A program made the translations under genes and the position numbers. A stretch of DNA of 38,648 bases from the sequence record SRR31156797_177; one strand, given 5' to 3'. Shown here one piece after another: positions 30,823-38,288 of this stretch; positions within the stretch are counted from its first letter, which is position 1, and each line of letters opens with the position of its first letter. The notes under the pieces were generated by a model. The model searched no databases, was not told the DNA's origin, and was given only the letters and a program-made list of their open reading frames with translations.

Positions 30823-30855
30823 AAAAAAAAAGTTCCCCCACTTAGGAAGAACTTT
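30823..30855 (-). terminator. Attenuator terminator upstream of leuA
   Basis: Minus-strand RNA AGUUCUUCC-UAAGU-GGGGGAAC followed by U9; G-U pairs fix the orientation. Confidence 0.85.
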
Positions 30856-30883
30856 GTATTATGATCGTTTAATCTTGTTCAGA

Positions 30884-30967
30884 TTATAACACAGTCTTCC
30901 AATTTGATCCTTCAATAATGAGGTCAAGAATGAGAATTAAACCTATAATAATTGAGTTCGTATTCAT
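30884..30967 (-). CDS. Leader peptide of the leu/cimA operon: MNTNSIIIGLILILDLIIEGSNWKTVL
   Basis: Manual translation: 27 aa with 7 Ile and 5 Leu; stop lies 28 nt before the terminator; GGAAGA in the leader is complementary to UCUUCC of the terminator 5' arm. Confidence 0.85.
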   Translation of the reverse strand: MNTNSIIIGLILILDLIIEGSNWKTVL

Positions 30968-31187: not shown

Positions 31188-31224
31188 TAAAACCTAACAG
31201 ATTGTTAGAATCTGTTAGGTTTTA
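31188..31224 (-). terminator. Stem-loop after ilvC (terminator or mRNA stabiliser)
   Basis: Perfect 16-bp inverted repeat TAAAACCTAACAGATT/AATCTGTTAGGTTTTA, 8 nt after the ilvC stop; short U-tract only. Confidence 0.65.
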
Positions 31225-31232
31225 GTGTATTT

Positions 31233-32279
31233 TTAGTTGTTTTCCGGACGAAGTTTACGAACAGCATTACCCGCCTGCCACATTTCACTTTCACGAAGTT
31301 CTTTCAACTCGTCTTCCAATTTAACACGATAGTCTTCCTGACTGTTTGAATCAATTGAACGCTGAGCTTCATTTCCTGCTGCCACTTCCTTATACAATTT
31401 ATCAAAAACTGGCTTGGTTGCATCGCGGAAAGGCTTCCACCAATCCAATGCGCCGCGTTGTGCAGTAGTTGAAGTATTCGCATACATCCAGTCCATACCA
31501 TTTTCAGCAACCAAAGGCATCAAACTTTGAGTTAACTCTTCAACCGTTTCGTTGAAAGCTTCAGAAGGAGAGTGACCATTGGCACGAAGCACCTCATACT
31601 GAGCAGCAAAAATTCCCTGGATACATCCCATTAAAGTTCCACGCTCACCAGTAAGATCAGAATACACTTCTCTCTTGAAAGTGGTTTCGAAAAGATAACC
31701 TGAACCAACACCAATACCCAAAGCAACAACTCTATCGAATGCTTTTCCTGTTGCATCCTGGAAAATTGCATAGGATGAATTCAAACCTCTTCCTTCCAGG
31801 AACATTCTTCTCAAACTGGTTCCTGATCCTTTTGGAGCAACTAAAATCACATCCACATCATCTGGAGGAACAATTCCTGTGCGCTCCTTGTAAGTGATAC
31901 CAAATCCGTGAGAGAAATACAATGCTTTACCCGGCTTCAAATATTTCTTAACCGTTGGCCAAACTGCAATCTGACCTGCATCCGACAATAAATATTGAAT
32001 AATCGTAGCTTTATCCAGAGCTTCCTCAATTTCGAAAAGAGTTTCACCTGGAACCCAACCATCAGCTACTGCTTTATCCCATGTTTTTGAATCTTTACGC
32101 TGACCAACGATTACATTGAAACCATTGTCTTTTAAATTTAAGGATTGACCTGGTCCCTGAACACCATAACCAATAACTGCAATAACTTCATCTTTTAATA
32201 CTTCACGAGCTTTTTCCAATGGAAATTCTTCACGAGTTACTACCTGTTCTTCTGTGCCGCCAAAGTTTATTGTTGCCAT
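31233..32279 (-). CDS. ilvC: Ketol-acid reductoisomerase (Bacteroidetes type)
   Basis: IGYGVQG, FSHGF, VAPKGSG, SDLTGERG and EAFNETVEE motifs. Confidence 0.95.
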   Translation of the reverse strand: MATINFGGTEEQVVTREEFPLEKAREVLKDEVIAVIGYGVQGPGQSLNLKDNGFNVIVGQRKDSKTWDKAVADGWVPGETLFEIEEALDKATIIQYLLSDAGQIAVWPTVKKYLKPGKALYFSHGFGITYKERTGIVPPDDVDVILVAPKGSGTSLRRMFLEGRGLNSSYAIFQDATGKAFDRVVALGIGVGSGYLFETTFKREVYSDLTGERGTLMGCIQGIFAAQYEVLRANGHSPSEAFNETVEELTQSLMPLVAENGMDWMYANTSTTAQRGALDWWKPFRDATKPVFDKLYKEVAAGNEAQRSIDSNSQEDYRVKLEDELKELRESEMWQAGNAVRKLRPENN

Positions 32280-32328
32280 TTCTTTAATTTTTTATTTTGG
32301 TTAAATATTATTAGATATTGTCTTTATT

Positions 32329-32844
32329 TTAGTGAGTTAACTCTTTGAGATAACTGGTAAATTCTTTCTGTTGACAGGATACTGCAACCCTACCCGAACG
32401 TGCAAATTGCAATACTCCAAACTGTTCCAGTTCATTAAACAATTCCTGATTTTCTGCTTTATATCCTACCTTTTCAATCACTAAAAATTCTGGTTGAACC
32501 GTTAGAATTTTTGCATTCTGCTTTCTCATTAAAGCCTCCAGATTCCCATTTAATGTAGGAGAATTCGCAATTTTAAATAGTGCAACCTCTTGATGAACAA
32601 TTTGATCTGCTTCGAAATAAAAGGCTTTAAATACGCCAATAATTTTTTCGATTTGACGCACTACATTTTCAACTCTATGGTCATCCATAAATGCCACAAT
32701 GGTATATCTAAATACGCCCTTTACTTCTGATTCGGAAACTGTTAAACTTTCGATATTTATTTTTCTTCGCGAGAAAACTATGGTTACCTCATTCAAAAGG
32801 CCTATATCATTTTCTGAAAAAATTGTTACTGTATATTCTCTCAT
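32329..32844 (-). CDS. ilvN: Acetolactate synthase small regulatory subunit
   Basis: ACT domain with FSRRKINIESL; C-terminal FARSGRVA. Confidence 0.92.
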   Translation of the reverse strand: MREYTVTIFSENDIGLLNEVTIVFSRRKINIESLTVSESEVKGVFRYTIVAFMDDHRVENVVRQIEKIIGVFKAFYFEADQIVHQEVALFKIANSPTLNGNLEALMRKQNAKILTVQPEFLVIEKVGYKAENQELFNELEQFGVLQFARSGRVAVSCQQKEFTSYLKELTH

Positions 32845-32892
32845 GTCTTTATTTTATTAGTCTCAATGATCTACTTCCTGTTTTACACAATT

Positions 32893-34638
32893 TTACTCTA
32901 ATCTCATATCAGATACTGCTGCTCCTGGTGCAATCATCGGAAGTACGTTACTTTCCGTTTCAACCACCACCTCAAGGAAATAAGCTCCCGGAGTTTCCAG
33001 CATTTCTTTAATTGCGGCTTGTAAATCATCTCTCTCGCTTACACGCTTGGCTTTAATTCCATAACCTTCAACAATCTTTACAAAATCAGGATTGTCCATT
33101 TGTGTGTAAGAAAATCGTTGATCGAAAAACAGATCCTGCCACTGACGAACCATTCCTAAAAATGAGTTATTCAAAACAATCGATTTAACAGGTAATTTGT
33201 ATTGACGAATTACAGCCAATTCCTGAATTGTCATTTGAAAACCACCATCTCCTGATACCGATACTACTGTAGATTCCGGTGCTGCGATTTGTGCTCCAAT
33301 AGCCGCTGGCAAACCAAATCCCATAGTTCCTAATCCTCCTGATGTTACCTGTGTATTTGGATTTTTAAACTTGTAATATCGAGCACTTGTCATTTGATGC
33401 TGACCTACATCGGTACACAAAATTGCTTCCCCATTGGTTGCTTCTGATAAGCCATCGATTACCTCAGCCATGTTGATATTATCGCGAGTAGAATGCGTCT
33501 GATTCTTAATTACTTTATCGTATTCCAACTGATAGTAATTCGAAAAAGATTGCATCCACTCTTTTCTTTCACCTCCATTTACCAACTTGTTCAAGTCAGT
33601 TAATGCTTGTTTGGCATCTGCCAAAACCGGGACATCAACCCGAATATTTTTATTGTGTTCCGATTTATCGATATCAACATGAACAATCTTTGCCTGCTTT
33701 GCATATTTCGATGTATCACCAGTAACACGATCATCGAAACGCATACCAATAGCAATCAAAACATCACACTCGTTGGTGTTCATATTAGGACCATAATTGC
33801 CATGCATTCCCAACATTCCAACATACAATGGATGATTGGTAGGAAACGCCGATAAGCCCAATAGTGTACAAGCAACCGGAGTTTGTGTTTTTTCAGCGAA
33901 CTCCATCAATTCCTTCTCAGCTCCCGATAATAAAATTCCTTGTCCTGCTAAAATCAATGGCTTTTTTGCTGCGTTGATCAATTCAACTGCCGCCTCTATT
34001 TCCGATTGATTTACCTTTGGTACTGGCTGATATGAACGAATCCCTTCACACTTTTTATACTCGTAATCTGCTTCTGCAATTTGAGCATCCTTTGTAATGT
34101 CAATCAACACCGGACCCGGTCGACCTGATCTTGCGATGTAAAAAGCCTTAGCCATCACTTCAGCGATTTCTTCAGACTTGGTAATTTGATAATTCCATTT
34201 GGTTACAGGCATGGAAAGACCCACCATGTTTGTTTCCTGAAAGGCATCGGTTCCCAGCAAACCACTTGCTACCTGACCTGTAATTACAACCATAGGTGTT
34301 GAATCCAAATATGCATCTGCCAAACCTGTAATTAGGTTGGTTGCTCCAGGACCTGAGGTGGTAAAACACACACCAGGTTTCTTTGTAATTCGTGCGTATG
34401 CCTGTGCACTATGAGTAGCACCTTGTTCATGTCTCGACATGTAATGCTTCAATTCTTCCTGATAGTCATACAATGCATCGTATACAGGCATTATCGCCCC
34501 ACCAATGTATCCAAACATTGTATCAACACCTTCCTGAATCAGGCTTCGAACCAATATTTCTGCTCCTGAAATTCTTTCACCGGTATCATTCATTCCTTTT
34601 ATATTTTCGGTTTTTGCTGCTGTTTCCATGTTGTTCAT
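32893..34638 (-). CDS. ilvB: Acetolactate synthase large subunit
   Basis: RHEQGA, TSGPGATN, GMLGMHG, RFDDRVTG, DVGQHQM, GDGGFQM and GMVRQWQ motifs; exact start uncertain. Confidence 0.95.
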   Translation of the reverse strand: MNNMETAAKTENIKGMNDTGERISGAEILVRSLIQEGVDTMFGYIGGAIMPVYDALYDYQEELKHYMSRHEQGATHSAQAYARITKKPGVCFTTSGPGATNLITGLADAYLDSTPMVVITGQVASGLLGTDAFQETNMVGLSMPVTKWNYQITKSEEIAEVMAKAFYIARSGRPGPVLIDITKDAQIAEADYEYKKCEGIRSYQPVPKVNQSEIEAAVELINAAKKPLILAGQGILLSGAEKELMEFAEKTQTPVACTLLGLSAFPTNHPLYVGMLGMHGNYGPNMNTNECDVLIAIGMRFDDRVTGDTSKYAKQAKIVHVDIDKSEHNKNIRVDVPVLADAKQALTDLNKLVNGGERKEWMQSFSNYYQLEYDKVIKNQTHSTRDNINMAEVIDGLSEATNGEAILCTDVGQHQMTSARYYKFKNPNTQVTSGGLGTMGFGLPAAIGAQIAAPESTVVSVSGDGGFQMTIQELAVIRQYKLPVKSIVLNNSFLGMVRQWQDLFFDQRFSYTQMDNPDFVKIVEGYGIKAKRVSERDDLQAAIKEMLETPGAYFLEVVVETESNVLPMIAPGAAVSDMRLE

Positions 34639-34652
34639 TTTTGCTGTTTGCT

Positions 34653-36488
34653 TTACAATTGTCGAATAGCTCCTTTATCTGCTGATGAAACCAGTTTTGA
34701 ATAAGCCTGTAGTGCTTTTGAGACTTCTCTTCCTCTACCTCTTGGGGTAAAAGCTCTATCTCCAAAACTGAGTTCTTCTGCTCTCCTGCTTTCCAGTTCT
34801 TCCTCCGAAATACAGATATTAAGTGTTCGATTTGGAATGCTAATTTCAATTTCATCTCCCTCTTTTATCAGAGCAATTGCTCCTCCTGCTCCTGCTTCCG
34901 GCGATACATGTCCTATCGATAATCCTGAGGTTCCGCCTGAAAATCTTCCATCGGTAATCAGAGCACATTTGGCTCCCAATCCCATTGATTTCAGATAAGA
35001 AGTTGGATAGAGCATCTCTTGCATTCCCGGTCCTCCTGAAGGTCCTTCGTAGCGAATGACCACCACATCACCAGCATTAATTTGCTTGGTCAAAATTGCT
35101 TCACATGCATCTCGCTGAGACTGATATACTTTAGCTGTTCCTTTAAAATTGAAGACTTCTTCAGCCACACCTGCTGTCTTCACAACGCATCCATCAGGAG
35201 CGATATTTCCGAACAATACAGCCAATCCACCATCCTGAGTGTAGGCATTCTCCATGCTTCGGATACATCCATTTTTTCTGTCCTGATCCAAATCTGCATA
35301 CACCTCATTCTGTGAGGCAAAACTTAGGTTTCTGCCTTTTCTTCCTGGTGCCGAATAGTAATTCGCCAAAGCCTTATCCGAAACTTTTTCTGATCTAAGA
35401 TTGTTTTCTTCCAATGCTATTTTCAGGCTTGGATAATCCACACGATAAACATCTGTATTCAGTAATCCGCCATCTGCCAGTTCACCAAGAATACTCATGA
35501 TGCCTCCTGCATGATTTACATCTTCTATGTAATATTTTTCTGAATTCGGTGCCACTTTGCACAAGTTTGGAGTCTTGCGTGACAACAGATCCATATCTTT
35601 CATTGTAAAATCAACTCCTGCTTCATGAGCAATTGCCAATAGATGAAGAACCGTATTAGTCGATCCTCCCATAGCAATATCCAATGTCATCGCATTTTCG
35701 AATGCTTCAAACGTAGCTATGGATCTTGGCAAAACACTATCATCTCCATCTCTGTAATATCTGTTGGTGATGTTTACAATGCATTCTGCAGCATCCAAAA
35801 ACAATTGCTTGCGATTTTTGTGAGTAGCCAATACTGTTCCATTTCCTGGCAGTGCCAAACCCAATGCTTCATTCAAACAATTCATTGAATTAGCAGTAAA
35901 CATTCCCGAACAGGATCCGCAAGTTGGACATGCCGACTCTTCGATTTCCTGCATGCGTTCATCACTCACGCTATCATCACCAGCCTTTACCATGGCATCA
36001 ACCAAATCAAGCTTTTCACCTTTCGATTCACCTGCTTCCATAGGACCGCCCGATACAAAAACAGCAGGGATATTCAAACGCATTGCTGCCATCATCATTC
36101 CTGGTGTAATCTTATCACAATTCGAAATGCAAATCATTGCATCTACTTTGTGTCCATTGCAAACATATTCAACACTATCAGCGATCACATCTCGAGACGG
36201 CAAGGAGTACAACATTCCGTCGTGTCCCATGGCAATGCCATCATCTATTGCAATGGTGTTGAATTCAGCAGCAAAAAATCCAGCTTTTTCGATCTCCTTT
36301 TTCATCATTTGCCCTACATCCTTCAAATGAACATGCCCTGGCACAAACTGTGAGAAAGAGTTCACTACCGCGATAACCGGCTTCCCGAACATCTCCTCTT
36401 TCATACCATTGGCACGCCACAGACTGCGGGCTCCAGCCATTCGTCTACCTTGTGTGGTTTGATTGCTACGTAGTTGATTTTTATACAT
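34653..36488 (-). CDS. ilvD: Dihydroxy-acid dehydratase
   Basis: [38 protein letters not shown] and TDGRFSG motifs. Confidence 0.96.
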
Positions 36489-36537
36489 TTTGGTTAATTC
36501 GTTAAATAGTTATTTTGTGTTTGTCTTCATTTTGAGC

Positions 36538-36569
36538 AAAAAAAACGCTCTTCCGTTTCGGGAAGAGCG
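36538..36569 (-). terminator. Proximal ilvD attenuator terminator
   Basis: Minus-strand RNA CGCUCUUCC-CGAAAC-GGAAGAGCG followed by U8, 49 nt before the ilvD ATG. Confidence 0.9.
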
Positions 36570-36593
36570 CTCATAATTTCGTTTGATTCGAAG

Positions 36594-36683
36594 TTATTGT
36601 GTGTGCACGTCTTCCCTGATCCTCATTAGAATAATGACGATAGAAATAATAATGACGATAATGACTACGTTAAATGATAACAT
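36594..36683 (-). CDS. Proximal ilv leader peptide: MLSFNVVIIVIIISIVIILMRIREDVHTQ
   Basis: Manual translation: 29 aa with 9 Ile, 5 Val, 2 Leu; GGGAAGA in the leader is complementary to UCUUCCC of the downstream terminator. Confidence 0.88.
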   Translation of the reverse strand: MLSFNVVIIVIIISIVIILMRIREDVHTQ

Positions 36684-36696
36684 ACAATAACCTGAT

Positions 36697-36730
36697 AAAA
36701 AGAAAGCCTCTTCGTTTCGGAAGAGGCTTT
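36697..36730 (-). terminator. Distal ilvD attenuator terminator
   Basis: Minus-strand RNA AAAGCCUCUUC-CGAAAC-GAAGAGGC followed by UUUCUUUUU. Confidence 0.9.
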
Positions 36731-36769
36731 GATATTTTGTAAAACTAATTTCGTTTAATTTAAATATGC

Positions 36770-36838
36770 TCAACCTCGATTCGTGTCCAGAAGGACGCGA
36801 ATAATGACGTTAATAATAATGACTGTATTAAATTGCAT
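36770..36838 (-). CDS. Distal ilv leader peptide: MQFNTVIIINVIIRVLLDTNRG
   Basis: Manual translation: 22 aa with 5 Ile, 3 Val, 2 Leu; its 3' end GAGGUUGA can pair with UCAA(AG)CCUC at the terminator 5' arm. Confidence 0.85.
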   Translation of the reverse strand: MQFNTVIIINVIIRVLLDTNRG

Positions 36839-36933
36839 ATCTTTTTTTACTTGTTCGAATCTTTAAAGATTCGTTTTGTTTTTAACTTTGTCAACGAACA
36901 TTTACAATCTTTCTTTCGATCTGATTACGTTGA

Positions 36934-36979
36934 CAAATCTATGTGACAAATGTATGTGAAAAAATCTTCTTTTTCCAAA
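36934..36979 (-). promoter_or_regulatory. Bacteroidetes housekeeping promoter for the ilv operon
   Basis: TTTG (36979-36976), 21-nt spacer, TACATTTG (36954-36947); a second TAGATTTG at 36941-36934. Confidence 0.65.
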
Positions 36980-37177: not shown

Positions 37178-37218
37178 AAAAAAAGAAAGGTTATTGAAAT
37201 TTTGTTATCAACAACCTT
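37178..37218 (-). terminator. Terminator of the YtxH/holin-like/hypothetical unit
   Basis: Minus-strand RNA AAGGUUGUUGA/UCAAUAACCUU stem followed by UCUUUUUUU. Confidence 0.7.
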
Positions 37219-37292
37219 CATTTTTATTAAATCTTTTACTCAATGTTTTTAAATGATAACCTCACTGCTCAAATTATAATATTCATGGAAAT

Positions 37293-37588: not shown

Positions 37589-37951
37589 TTATTTACTTTT
37601 TCTCTCCTCCTCTTTGTATAGTAATTGATAGAAGATTTTGATTAAAGGGCGCTCAATCAATGGTTTCTTAAGCAAGTAAACCAATAGTAACAAAAGCAGA
37701 TAAAAGAAAGCTACGCATAGATAACCAACTGGTTCATTTTCCAACAAATTGCCTAACCATATTGCTAAAGCAAAACCGAAAAGTAGTAAAGCTAATATCA
37801 ACAGTACGAAAACTACTGCAATAAACGTCATGGCTACGACGAGTCGTATTAATTTTTCGAAACCGGCAAACTTATAATATTCAACATTCGAGTCAAAATA
37901 CTCAATTAGTAATTCTTTCAATTGCGTGAATTGTTCGGCGAGCTTTTCCAA
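37589..37951 (-). CDS. Two-TM membrane protein resembling the 'phage holin family' (YqjE-like)
   Basis: Amphipathic N-terminus, two long hydrophobic helices, basic C-terminus; follows the YtxH gene; TTG start. Confidence 0.65.
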   Translation of the reverse strand: MEKLAEQFTQLKELLIEYFDSNVEYYKFAGFEKLIRLVVAMTFIAVVFVLLILALLLFGFALAIWLGNLLENEPVGYLCVAFFYLLLLLLVYLLKKPLIERPLIKIFYQLLYKEEERKSK

Positions 37952-38021: not shown

Positions 38022-38288
38022 TTAAACCACCTCCTCTTCTTTTGTCTCTTTTCTTCTGAAGTCTTCTAATTTCTTCTCTAACTCCACAATTAATTCGTCC
38101 ATTTTAACCCGCATTTTCTCCATATTTTTATCGAAAGCGGCATCCATTTCCTCAACCTTTTCTTTTGCTTTCGCCTTCACTTTCTTACGAGTTACCTCCC
38201 CTTTATCAGGAGCGTATAAAACACCTAATCCAACTCCAATTGCACAACCAGCTAAAAAACCTGCAATAATTCCTCCTGTACTTGACAT
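38022..38288 (-). CDS. YtxH domain-containing protein
   Basis: GFLAGCAIGVGLGVLYAPDKGEVTRKK signature followed by a charged coiled coil. Confidence 0.9.
   Translation of the reverse strand: MSSTGGIIAGFLAGCAIGVGLGVLYAPDKGEVTRKKVKAKAKEKVEEMDAAFDKNMEKMRVKMDELIVELEKKLEDFRRKETKEEEVV

Follow-up and report, generated by a model that had tools for sequence, protein, structure and literature searches.

Two leader units ahead of ilvD

The 38,648-nucleotide stretch of DNA analysed here (sequence record SRR31156797_177; hereafter the window) carries the genes ilvD-ilvB-ilvN-ilvC on its minus strand. The subject of this report is their leader, read on the minus (mRNA) strand from 36954 to 36488, in which two small open reading frames (ORFs) rich in isoleucine and valine codons, each followed by an intrinsic terminator, stand one behind the other ahead of ilvD. 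The source organism is a marine Bacteroidota, a Marinifilum, with an ilvD product that shares 98% identity with its counterpart in an uncultured Marinifilum and 85-91% with those of other Marinifilum, Ancylomarina and Labilibaculum. The ilvD gene was assigned via relatives, and ilvN and ilvC via NCBIfam; the ORF of 581 amino acids flanked by ilvD and ilvN is read as a putative ilvB from its position and length only. Comparative statements refer to an alignment of 32 distinct sequences including that of the window (8 duplicate rows were dropped), drawn from genomes of the family Marinifilaceae and from ilvD-relative loci. The leader and the regulated genes have the following parts:

36770 to 36838, minus strand: leader ORF 1, 22 codons plus stop (ATG at 36838, TGA at 36772-36770)
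36762 to 36842, minus strand: closing helix C1, AGAUAUGC (36842-36835, including AUG1) paired with GCAUAUUU (36769-36762, just past stop 1), from RNAalifold
36723 to 36777, minus strand: antiterminator 1 (AT1), GAGGUU (36777-36772) paired with AGCCUC (36728-36723) in the 5' arm of terminator 1
36697 to 36730, minus strand: intrinsic terminator 1 (T1), 11-bp stem 36730-36703 with the 6-nt loop CGAAAC, then CUUUUU
36594 to 36683, minus strand: leader ORF 2, 29 codons plus stop (ATG at 36683, TAA at 36596-36594)
36592 to 36692, minus strand: closing helix C2, GGUUAUUGU (36692-36684, directly before AUG2) paired with ACAAUAACU (36600-36592, spanning stop 2), from the minimum free energy fold
36560 to 36616, minus strand: antiterminator 2 (AT2), GGGAAGA (36616-36610) plus GUGC (36608-36605) paired with GCGCUCUUCCC (36570-36560) in the 5' arm of terminator 2
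36535 to 36572, minus strand: intrinsic terminator 2 (T2), 12-bp stem 36572-36543 with loop CGAAAC, then U8
31233 to 36488, minus strand: the regulated genes ilvD-ilvB-ilvN-ilvC, from ORF calling, with the ilvD ATG at 36488

An initial annotation of the window, made from its letters, had described a 22-amino-acid leader with hairpin and U-tract, followed only 13 nt later by a 29-amino-acid leader with hairpin and U8 and then by ilvD, and the ORF and terminator coordinates bear out every part of this arrangement, including the 13 nt that separate the U-tract of T1 from ATG2. The first peptide, MQFNTVIIINVIIRVLLDTNRG, contains the run V-I-I-I-N-V-I-I, in which seven of the eight codons specify isoleucine or valine, followed by R-V-L-L. 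The second, MLSFNVVIIVIIISIVIILMRIREDVHTQ, contains the longer run V-V-I-I-V-I-I-I-S-I-V-I-I, with isoleucine or valine at 12 of 13 codons.

Each terminator is matched by an alternative structure. Both antiterminators use the 5' arm of their own terminator, and in each unit the two pairings are mutually exclusive. The initial annotation had already claimed that the 3' end of each leader is complementary to the 5' arm of its own terminator; this stood, and folding refined it to GAGGUU:AGCCUC in unit 1 and to GGGAAGA plus GUGC in unit 2. AT1 has a 5' strand that overlaps stop codon 1 and a helix extended by CAUAUUU:AAAUAU and AAAC:GUUU. In AT2 the 5' strand lies between the run and stop codon 2, starting 14 nt past the former and stopping 8 nt short of the latter. 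The extensions CAUAUUU:AAAUAU and GUGC:GCGC are those of the folded window sequence alone.

As a whole, a 321-nt stretch of the leader folds at -87.2 kcal/mol, compared with -55.4 +/- 4.6 kcal/mol for 100 shuffled versions (z -6.9), and 1.4 kb of sequence holds 4 terminator-like sites where 0.8 are expected. The predicted folds fall into two states. With a ribosome footprint placed on the isoleucine/valine run and the terminator 3' arm not yet made, both nascent RNAs fold into their antiterminators (-18.7 kcal/mol for AT2). With no ribosome, the folds contain the closing helices C1 and C2 together with the terminators (-15.7 kcal/mol for T1, -18.6 kcal/mol for T2) and, in unit 1, an additional UUAAC:GUUGA pairing. 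In the stalled-ribosome fold of unit 1, AAAUAU upstream of T1 becomes the partner of the C1 3' strand, which so joins the extended antiterminator, and C1 is thus predicted to compete with read-through. Searched against Rfam at permissive thresholds, nothing in the leader reaches a gathering score: Phe_leader scores 28.5 bits against the 55 required, through the terminator hairpin only, Thr_leader scores 17.8 against 55, and the BTnc231 match (14 against 80.4) is at the level of noise.

Conservation, covariation and recurrence of the pair

The leader DNA of the window is matched in 31 of 96 genomes of the family, strongly in 30 of them, and in the alignment of ilvD upstream regions, a comparison that the initial annotation had suggested, the arrangement is conserved across the 32 distinct sequences. 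Both isoleucine/valine-rich ORFs are kept in 31 of them. A strict scan for leader, terminator, leader and terminator in that order was passed by 27, the failures being L090, L103 and L108 (one terminator missed in each), L106 (both missed) and L009; the hairpins missed by the scan are visible in the alignment.

The coding of the two runs is preserved in a particular manner. In leader 1 the ATG is invariant, the sole indel in the run is of 3 nt (L106), the isoleucine positions of the run are isoleucine in 30-32 of 32 sequences, and the others alternate between valine and isoleucine, with valine at position 1 in 24 of 32 and at position 6 in 31 of 32. Leader 2, present as an ORF in 31 of 32 sequences, likewise has a sole indel of 3 nt (L109), and isoleucine stands at its isoleucine positions in 25-30 of the 30 sequences compared. 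In both runs variation is least at the second codon position (2 of 8 columns in leader 1, 2 of 13 in leader 2), and the remaining run positions exchange valine, isoleucine and leucine. Near-invariant isoleucines, exchanges confined to V/I/L and indels of 3 nt are as predicted by selection on translated regulatory codons.

Pairing is preserved to a similar degree. The terminator state, with its 61 pairs in 8 helices, has 96.3% of 1929 cells paired, compared with 41-51% when the partners are slid against each other, and changes on both sides occur in 6 pairs and 32 cells, against 11.0 +/- 2.4 in shuffled alignments, a count reached by 0 of 500 shuffles. The helices of T1 and T2 in this state are 96-100% paired in the 32 sequences, the inner helix of T1 in all of them, and most relatives have U7-U10 at the U-tract of T1 where the window has CUUUUU. 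The clearest compensatory pairs lie in C1, C2 and T2: 25 sequences have U-A and 7 have C-G at pair 186/265 of C1, pair 346/444 of C2, a helix with 96% of cells paired, is G-C in 17 and A-U in 11, and pair 480/489 of T2 is C-G in 21 and U-A in 10. The antiterminator state (17 pairs) is 92.3% paired, compared with 38-66% when slid. The core of AT1, with 6 pairs in 32 rows, shows standard pairing in 191 of 192 cells, and the 10-pair helix as tested, with a 4-pair extension, is 90.2% paired; the 7-bp core of AT2 is 95% paired and has changed on both sides in 4 of its 7 pairs. To judge from this joint conservation, the pair is under selection as a pair.

The departure from this pattern is L009 (= G062, a Labilibaculum metagenome-assembled genome), in which unit 1 is intact and unit 2 lacks the isoleucine/valine run and has a weaker terminator. 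From about 200 to 40 nt upstream of its ilvD, an ORF MGIFLLFRMERKIKPNNFRNK (translated by eye) replaces the unit 2 leader.

The two units are also alike in sequence. They are identical at 91 of 122 positions (75%; z 8 against shuffles), and the spacer and terminator compared on their own give z 8.9, the likeness extending to the spacer, which is non-coding, to the loop CGAAAC and to the terminator. On this likeness, units 1 and 2 are duplicates (paralogues). A covariance model built on the unit, R1, gives a pair of adjacent full-length matches in 29 of the 30 source genomes, where matching follows from its construction, and a single match in G062. Three further genomes of the family (G048, G050 and G035), whose ilvD N-termini are 89%, 71% and 77% identical to that of the window, each have two weaker matches close to one another. 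A script located two complete leader-plus-terminator units directly before ilvD in all three, the peptides being quite different (MLHTSSILVNVIIINLVVIRD and MNHTLSIIIVVLISVIIIQ are examples).

Beyond these, a relaxed scan of the best 80 ilvD loci of species genomes, two of which have less than 300 nt of upstream sequence, detected two units at 13, one at 45 and none at 22. The 13 comprise 8 Marinifilaceae, L014, L021, L030, L042 and the doubtful L050. In the pairs from outside the Marinifilaceae, read by eye, each unit has an antiterminator complement. Pairwise scores do not separate one old duplication from several for the pairs of Marinifilaceae, of L014, L021 and L030, and of L042. The single attenuators at the 45 loci in other Bacteroidia share with the Marinifilum leader the gene context, the Ile/Leu/Val kind of leader and the kind of terminator, and differ in having one unit.

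Probable attenuation in series and the alternatives

Two complete ribosome-mediated attenuators in series were the reading put forward in the initial annotation, and it gains support from ORFs kept in 31 of 32 relatives, from the paired terminators and antiterminators, and from diverged genomes with two units. We consider it probable that the ilvDBNC leader consists of two complete, paralogous ribosome-mediated transcription attenuators in series that answer to the same signal, charged tRNA-Ile and tRNA-Val. Both leaders would be translated, transcription would terminate at T1 and T2 in dependence on amino-acid supply, and the two units would act independently of each other. When isoleucine and valine are plentiful, the ribosome would reach the stop codon, at or shortly ahead of which the antiterminator has its 5' strand, and would cover that strand; the terminator would form and the polymerase would halt. 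In starvation the ribosome would stall in the isoleucine/valine run, leaving the antiterminator strand free to pair with the 5' arm of the terminator and so to permit read-through. With no ribosome at all, C1 and C2 would close the leaders and withhold part of the antiterminators, with termination by default. This would be the classical four-segment logic, to which is added that the initiation region of each leader would be sequestered once the leader had been fully made.

To reach ilvD, a polymerase would have to pass both checkpoints, each with a freshly loaded ribosome. Since the checkpoints stand in series, overall read-through would be approximately the product of two probabilities, so that the basal level would be lower, the range larger and the response steeper, and starvation would have to last through two successive samplings to be acted upon. 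Serial multiplicative behaviour of this kind would be the most economical explanation of the arrangement. A pair kept across the divergence of the whole family and recurring in other Bacteroidia would offer a simple system for testing multiplied read-through and a sharper response, and L009 would provide a natural single-unit variant for comparison with the two-unit model.

In enterobacteria, ilvGMEDA (with ilvL) and ilvBN (with ivbL) have single leader-peptide attenuators for branched-chain amino-acid genes. To our knowledge, leader-peptide attenuation is known almost entirely as single units and has hardly been studied in Bacteroidota, where promoters and the way translation starts are unlike those of E. 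coli. Attenuators in Bacteroidetes/Chlorobi were reportedly predicted by Vitreschak et al. in 2004 in FEMS Microbiol Lett. The Marinifilum units share with the ilvL and ivbL systems, and with those of leu and trp, a short ORF rich in codons for the end product, a terminator in competition with an antiterminator, and a decision that would be made by ribosome position, as summarised for trp in the excerpted part of PMC3641672. Unlike ilvL and ivbL, the present leader has two complete units, shows no detectable relationship in sequence or Rfam family, and belongs to a member of the Bacteroidota with TAnnTTTG promoters, no obvious Shine-Dalgarno sequence before the leaders and a start-stop closing helix for each leader. 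From within this phylum, the excerpted part of Ryan et al. (PMC7366714) describes short ORFs in B. thetaiotaomicron reminiscent of leader peptides. The excerpted part of Naville and Gautheret (PMC2965389) notes leader peptides outside Proteobacteria and a second, tandem terminator in some rimP leaders.

As to tandem systems, the initial annotation knew of no characterised tandem leader-peptide attenuator. This does not hold as worded, since the Salmonella mgtCBR leader, the nearest case in print, has been described as tandem attenuators (Lee and Groisman 2012; PMC3641672), and it stands for the present type, the mgtCBR leader having two signals and lacking intrinsic terminators. According to the excerpted part of that paper, mgtM senses ATP and mgtP proline with additive effects, the stem-loops are unlike intrinsic terminators and Rho is suggested to act, and the authors regarded the leader as a singular example. 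By that account, a single mRNA leader contains two short ORFs in both systems, and alternative stem-loops under the control of each ORF decide on transcription into the coding region. The Marinifilum units differ in being paralogous, in carrying the same isoleucine/valine codon runs and in ending each in a canonical hairpin and U-tract.

A parallel in logic is provided by complete riboswitches or T-boxes for one ligand arranged in tandem, from which, in the excerpted part of PMC12452182, a more digital, pseudo-cooperative response is expected. There too, two full sensor and terminator units receive the same input in series, and T-boxes likewise report tRNA charging. The sensor in those systems is an aptamer or a tRNA-binding RNA, in contrast to a ribosome translating a leader ORF, and as such a selected same-signal pair would be their ribosome-based counterpart. 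The literature on tandem leader-peptide attenuators and on attenuation in Bacteroidota that we covered, which leaves out many subscription papers, yielded no natural same-signal tandem; what matched were papers on erm resistance and on mgtCBR, and preprints on synthetic RNA circuits.

Several observations weigh against two independent sensors in series. AT1 is weak in the window, with a 6-bp core that includes one G-U pair, and the corresponding alternative fold reaches -11.8 kcal/mol, compared with -15.7 for T1. The context of AUG2 is U-rich, unlike the A-rich contexts of AUG1 and the ilvD start, AUG2 can be sequestered in C2, and codon conservation is the sole pointer to translation of leader 2. 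Changes on both sides are found in only 6 of 61 terminator-state pairs and 5 of 17 antiterminator-state pairs, the latter count being reached by 49 of 500 shuffles, and the sequences are close relatives, so that covariation is supportive rather than decisive. L009 has lost the unit 2 run, and the pair is therefore not indispensable. The 3' arm of T1 contains GAAGAG, complementary to CUCUUC in the 5' arm of T2, which makes cross-talk between the units possible. The RNA-library contigs that bridge T1 into leader 2 (36616-36766 with 0 mismatches, and 36630-36717), and the contig of a relative that bridges T2 (36534-36667 plus a loose end), speak for the serial reading, but weakly and not decisively. 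Six RNA runs contain small portions of the stretch, and the contigs, taken from four of them, are of low depth, do not reveal ends, strand or level, and may include DNA.

The complementarity between T1 and T2 would be put to use if the pair were one coupled device rather than independent repeats, possibly a general answer of the Shine-Dalgarno-poor Bacteroidota to loose coupling of transcription and translation. Read-through of T1 would leave its 3' arm unpaired, at a distance of 19 nt from AUG2 and with complementarity to part of the T2 5' arm, and the state of the first switch could then bias how ribosomes load on leader 2 or how T2 folds, producing cooperative or memory-like behaviour in place of a plain multiplication of two probabilities. 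The start-stop closing helices might in addition act as timers that admit one ribosome per passing polymerase. We regard such a device as doubtful.

Less probable again, and in our view unlikely, is that the leader has one working sensor only, the other unit being a duplicate that is now a constitutive partial terminator, a source of small RNA or peptide, or in decay. An origin of the units through duplication is what such a history would begin with, and the degenerate unit 2 of L009, the weakness of AT1 in the window and the poor start context of leader 2 all lean the same way. Invariant isoleucine codons would be unexpected in a decaying copy, however, and 31 of 32 sequences retain the ORFs, runs, terminators and antiterminators of both units, each of which has indels that stay in frame and changes that compensate one another; two full units are also present in three diverged genomes and in four other lineages.

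That the two units sense different signals, as a heterotypic gate in the manner of mgtCBR with, for example, leucine plus isoleucine/valine sensed by unit 1 and isoleucine/valine only by unit 2, seems to us distinctly improbable. The idea draws on the leucine codons that follow the run of leader 1 (R-V-L-L or R-V-L-I), which lie within a conserved small hairpin, on the almost pure isoleucine/valine run of leader 2, and on the heterotypic nature of the tandem precedent excerpted from PMC3641672. The same codons nevertheless dominate both runs (ATT/ATC for isoleucine, GTC/GTA for valine), leuA in the same cluster has an isoleucine/leucine leader of its own, and from our reading of the fold a ribosome stalled at the leucine codons of leader 1 would cover part of the antiterminator strand.

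The weakest alternative, that the units belong to separate transcription units, with unit 1 a small gene for a hydrophobic peptide or small RNA, an ilvD promoter between the units and unit 2 the sole attenuator, can point to the promoter-like boxes and terminator that unit 1 has like an intergenic small RNA gene, to a leader transcript start that is only predicted and to the lack of any RNA-library contig upstream of 36866 (though absent cover is not evidence), but we hold it to be highly improbable, given the conserved antiterminator of unit 1, which an autonomous gene would not need, the constant presence of the unit beside ilvD, the contigs that bridge T1 into leader 2, and the mere 13 nt between the T1 U-tract and AUG2, with no TAnnTTTG box between the units. 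With regard to this last point, a pattern scan found no such box on the mRNA strand between 36934 and ilvD, and the motif is not enriched in the window (39 compared with 49.5 expected), so that a missing box between the units is weak evidence. Two attenuators in series thus remain the reading that we prefer, and both units would be on a single transcript.

Start of the leader transcript, the leuA unit and neighbouring genes

Upstream of leader 1 the mRNA strand carries three further features:

36947 to 36954, minus strand: putative -7 box TACATTTG of the Bacteroidota TAnnTTTG type, from a pattern match
36934 to 36941, minus strand: second TAnnTTTG box TAGATTTG, from a pattern match, invariant in 32 of 32 rows
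36888 to 36936, minus strand: hairpin of the 5' untranslated region, 9-bp stem UUGUCAACG/CGUUGACAA plus an inner 4-bp stem, from RNAalifold

The consensus TAnnTTTG is that given for Bacteroides promoters in the excerpted part of Ryan et al. (PMC7366714). The first box, which is conserved in the alignment and has a TTTG at 36979-36976, 21 nt upstream of it, is likely to be the main promoter of the leader transcript. The second overlaps the 5' strand of the hairpin and could be a second promoter or merely part of the RNA. A sigma-70 promoter scan returned 5 sites compared with 5.6 expected and was uninformative, that promoter type being wrong for this phylum.

The 5' hairpin is 49 nt long, with a 31-nt loop nearly unchanged in the 32 sequences, and 99% of its cells are paired, all 21 variant cells being G-U on the sense strand and none A-C. 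Variation by sense-strand G-U only suggests that the hairpin acts as RNA, and hence that transcription starts upstream of 36936, at the first box. In each of 5 genomes the hairpin is present as a single copy, that of ilvD, other hits being short chance matches, which rules out a repeated element. It has no Rfam match, and candidate roles are those of RNA stabiliser, protein site or pause element. Between it and AUG1 lies a small hairpin, CGAAUCUUUAAAGAUUCG (36856-36873), whose sequence changes while its pairing stays in most relatives; it is longer in the Ancylomarina-like rows, is missing from 7 of 32 rows (an M. fragile-like group) and scores as terminator-like on the plus strand.

Downstream, ilvC is followed by a gap of 455 nt and then by leuA, leuC, leuD, a citramalate-synthase-like gene that scores under the NCBIfam cut-off for CimA, leuB and ilvA, and a strong terminator-like hairpin is found at 23022-22980. 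The gap between ilvC and leuA contains another unit:

30829 to 30967, minus strand: third leader attenuator, with an ORF of 27 amino acids rich in isoleucine and leucine MNTNSIIIGLILILDLIIEGSNWKTVL, terminator stem 30855-30829 and a U-run

This unit, which ends 51 nt before the leuA ATG and has a TAGGTTTG box at 31026-31019, appears to be distantly paralogous to the ilvD units. In 6 relatives R1 has weak matches at a distance of about 6 kb downstream from the ilvD leaders, and these are taken to be the leuA-type element, judged by distance alone. Together with the ilvD pair, the third unit would afford a view of one duplicated module reused over a 10-gene pathway for isoleucine, valine and leucine. 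Directly after the ilvC stop lies a 16-pair hairpin (31188-31224) that is terminator-like on the plus strand and has a poor U-tract on the mRNA strand; it may bring about a partial separation of the ilvDBNC and leuA transcription units.

On the other side of the leader, two small minus-strand genes lie upstream, at 37589-37951 and 38022-38288. One encodes a product of 120 amino acids with hydrophobic stretches and no NCBIfam match, the other a protein of 88 amino acids that matches the ssl2009 family weakly and below threshold, at 29 bits where the cut-off is 58. The transcript of these two genes may end at a hairpin around 37190-37240, which is weakly aligned by Rfam.

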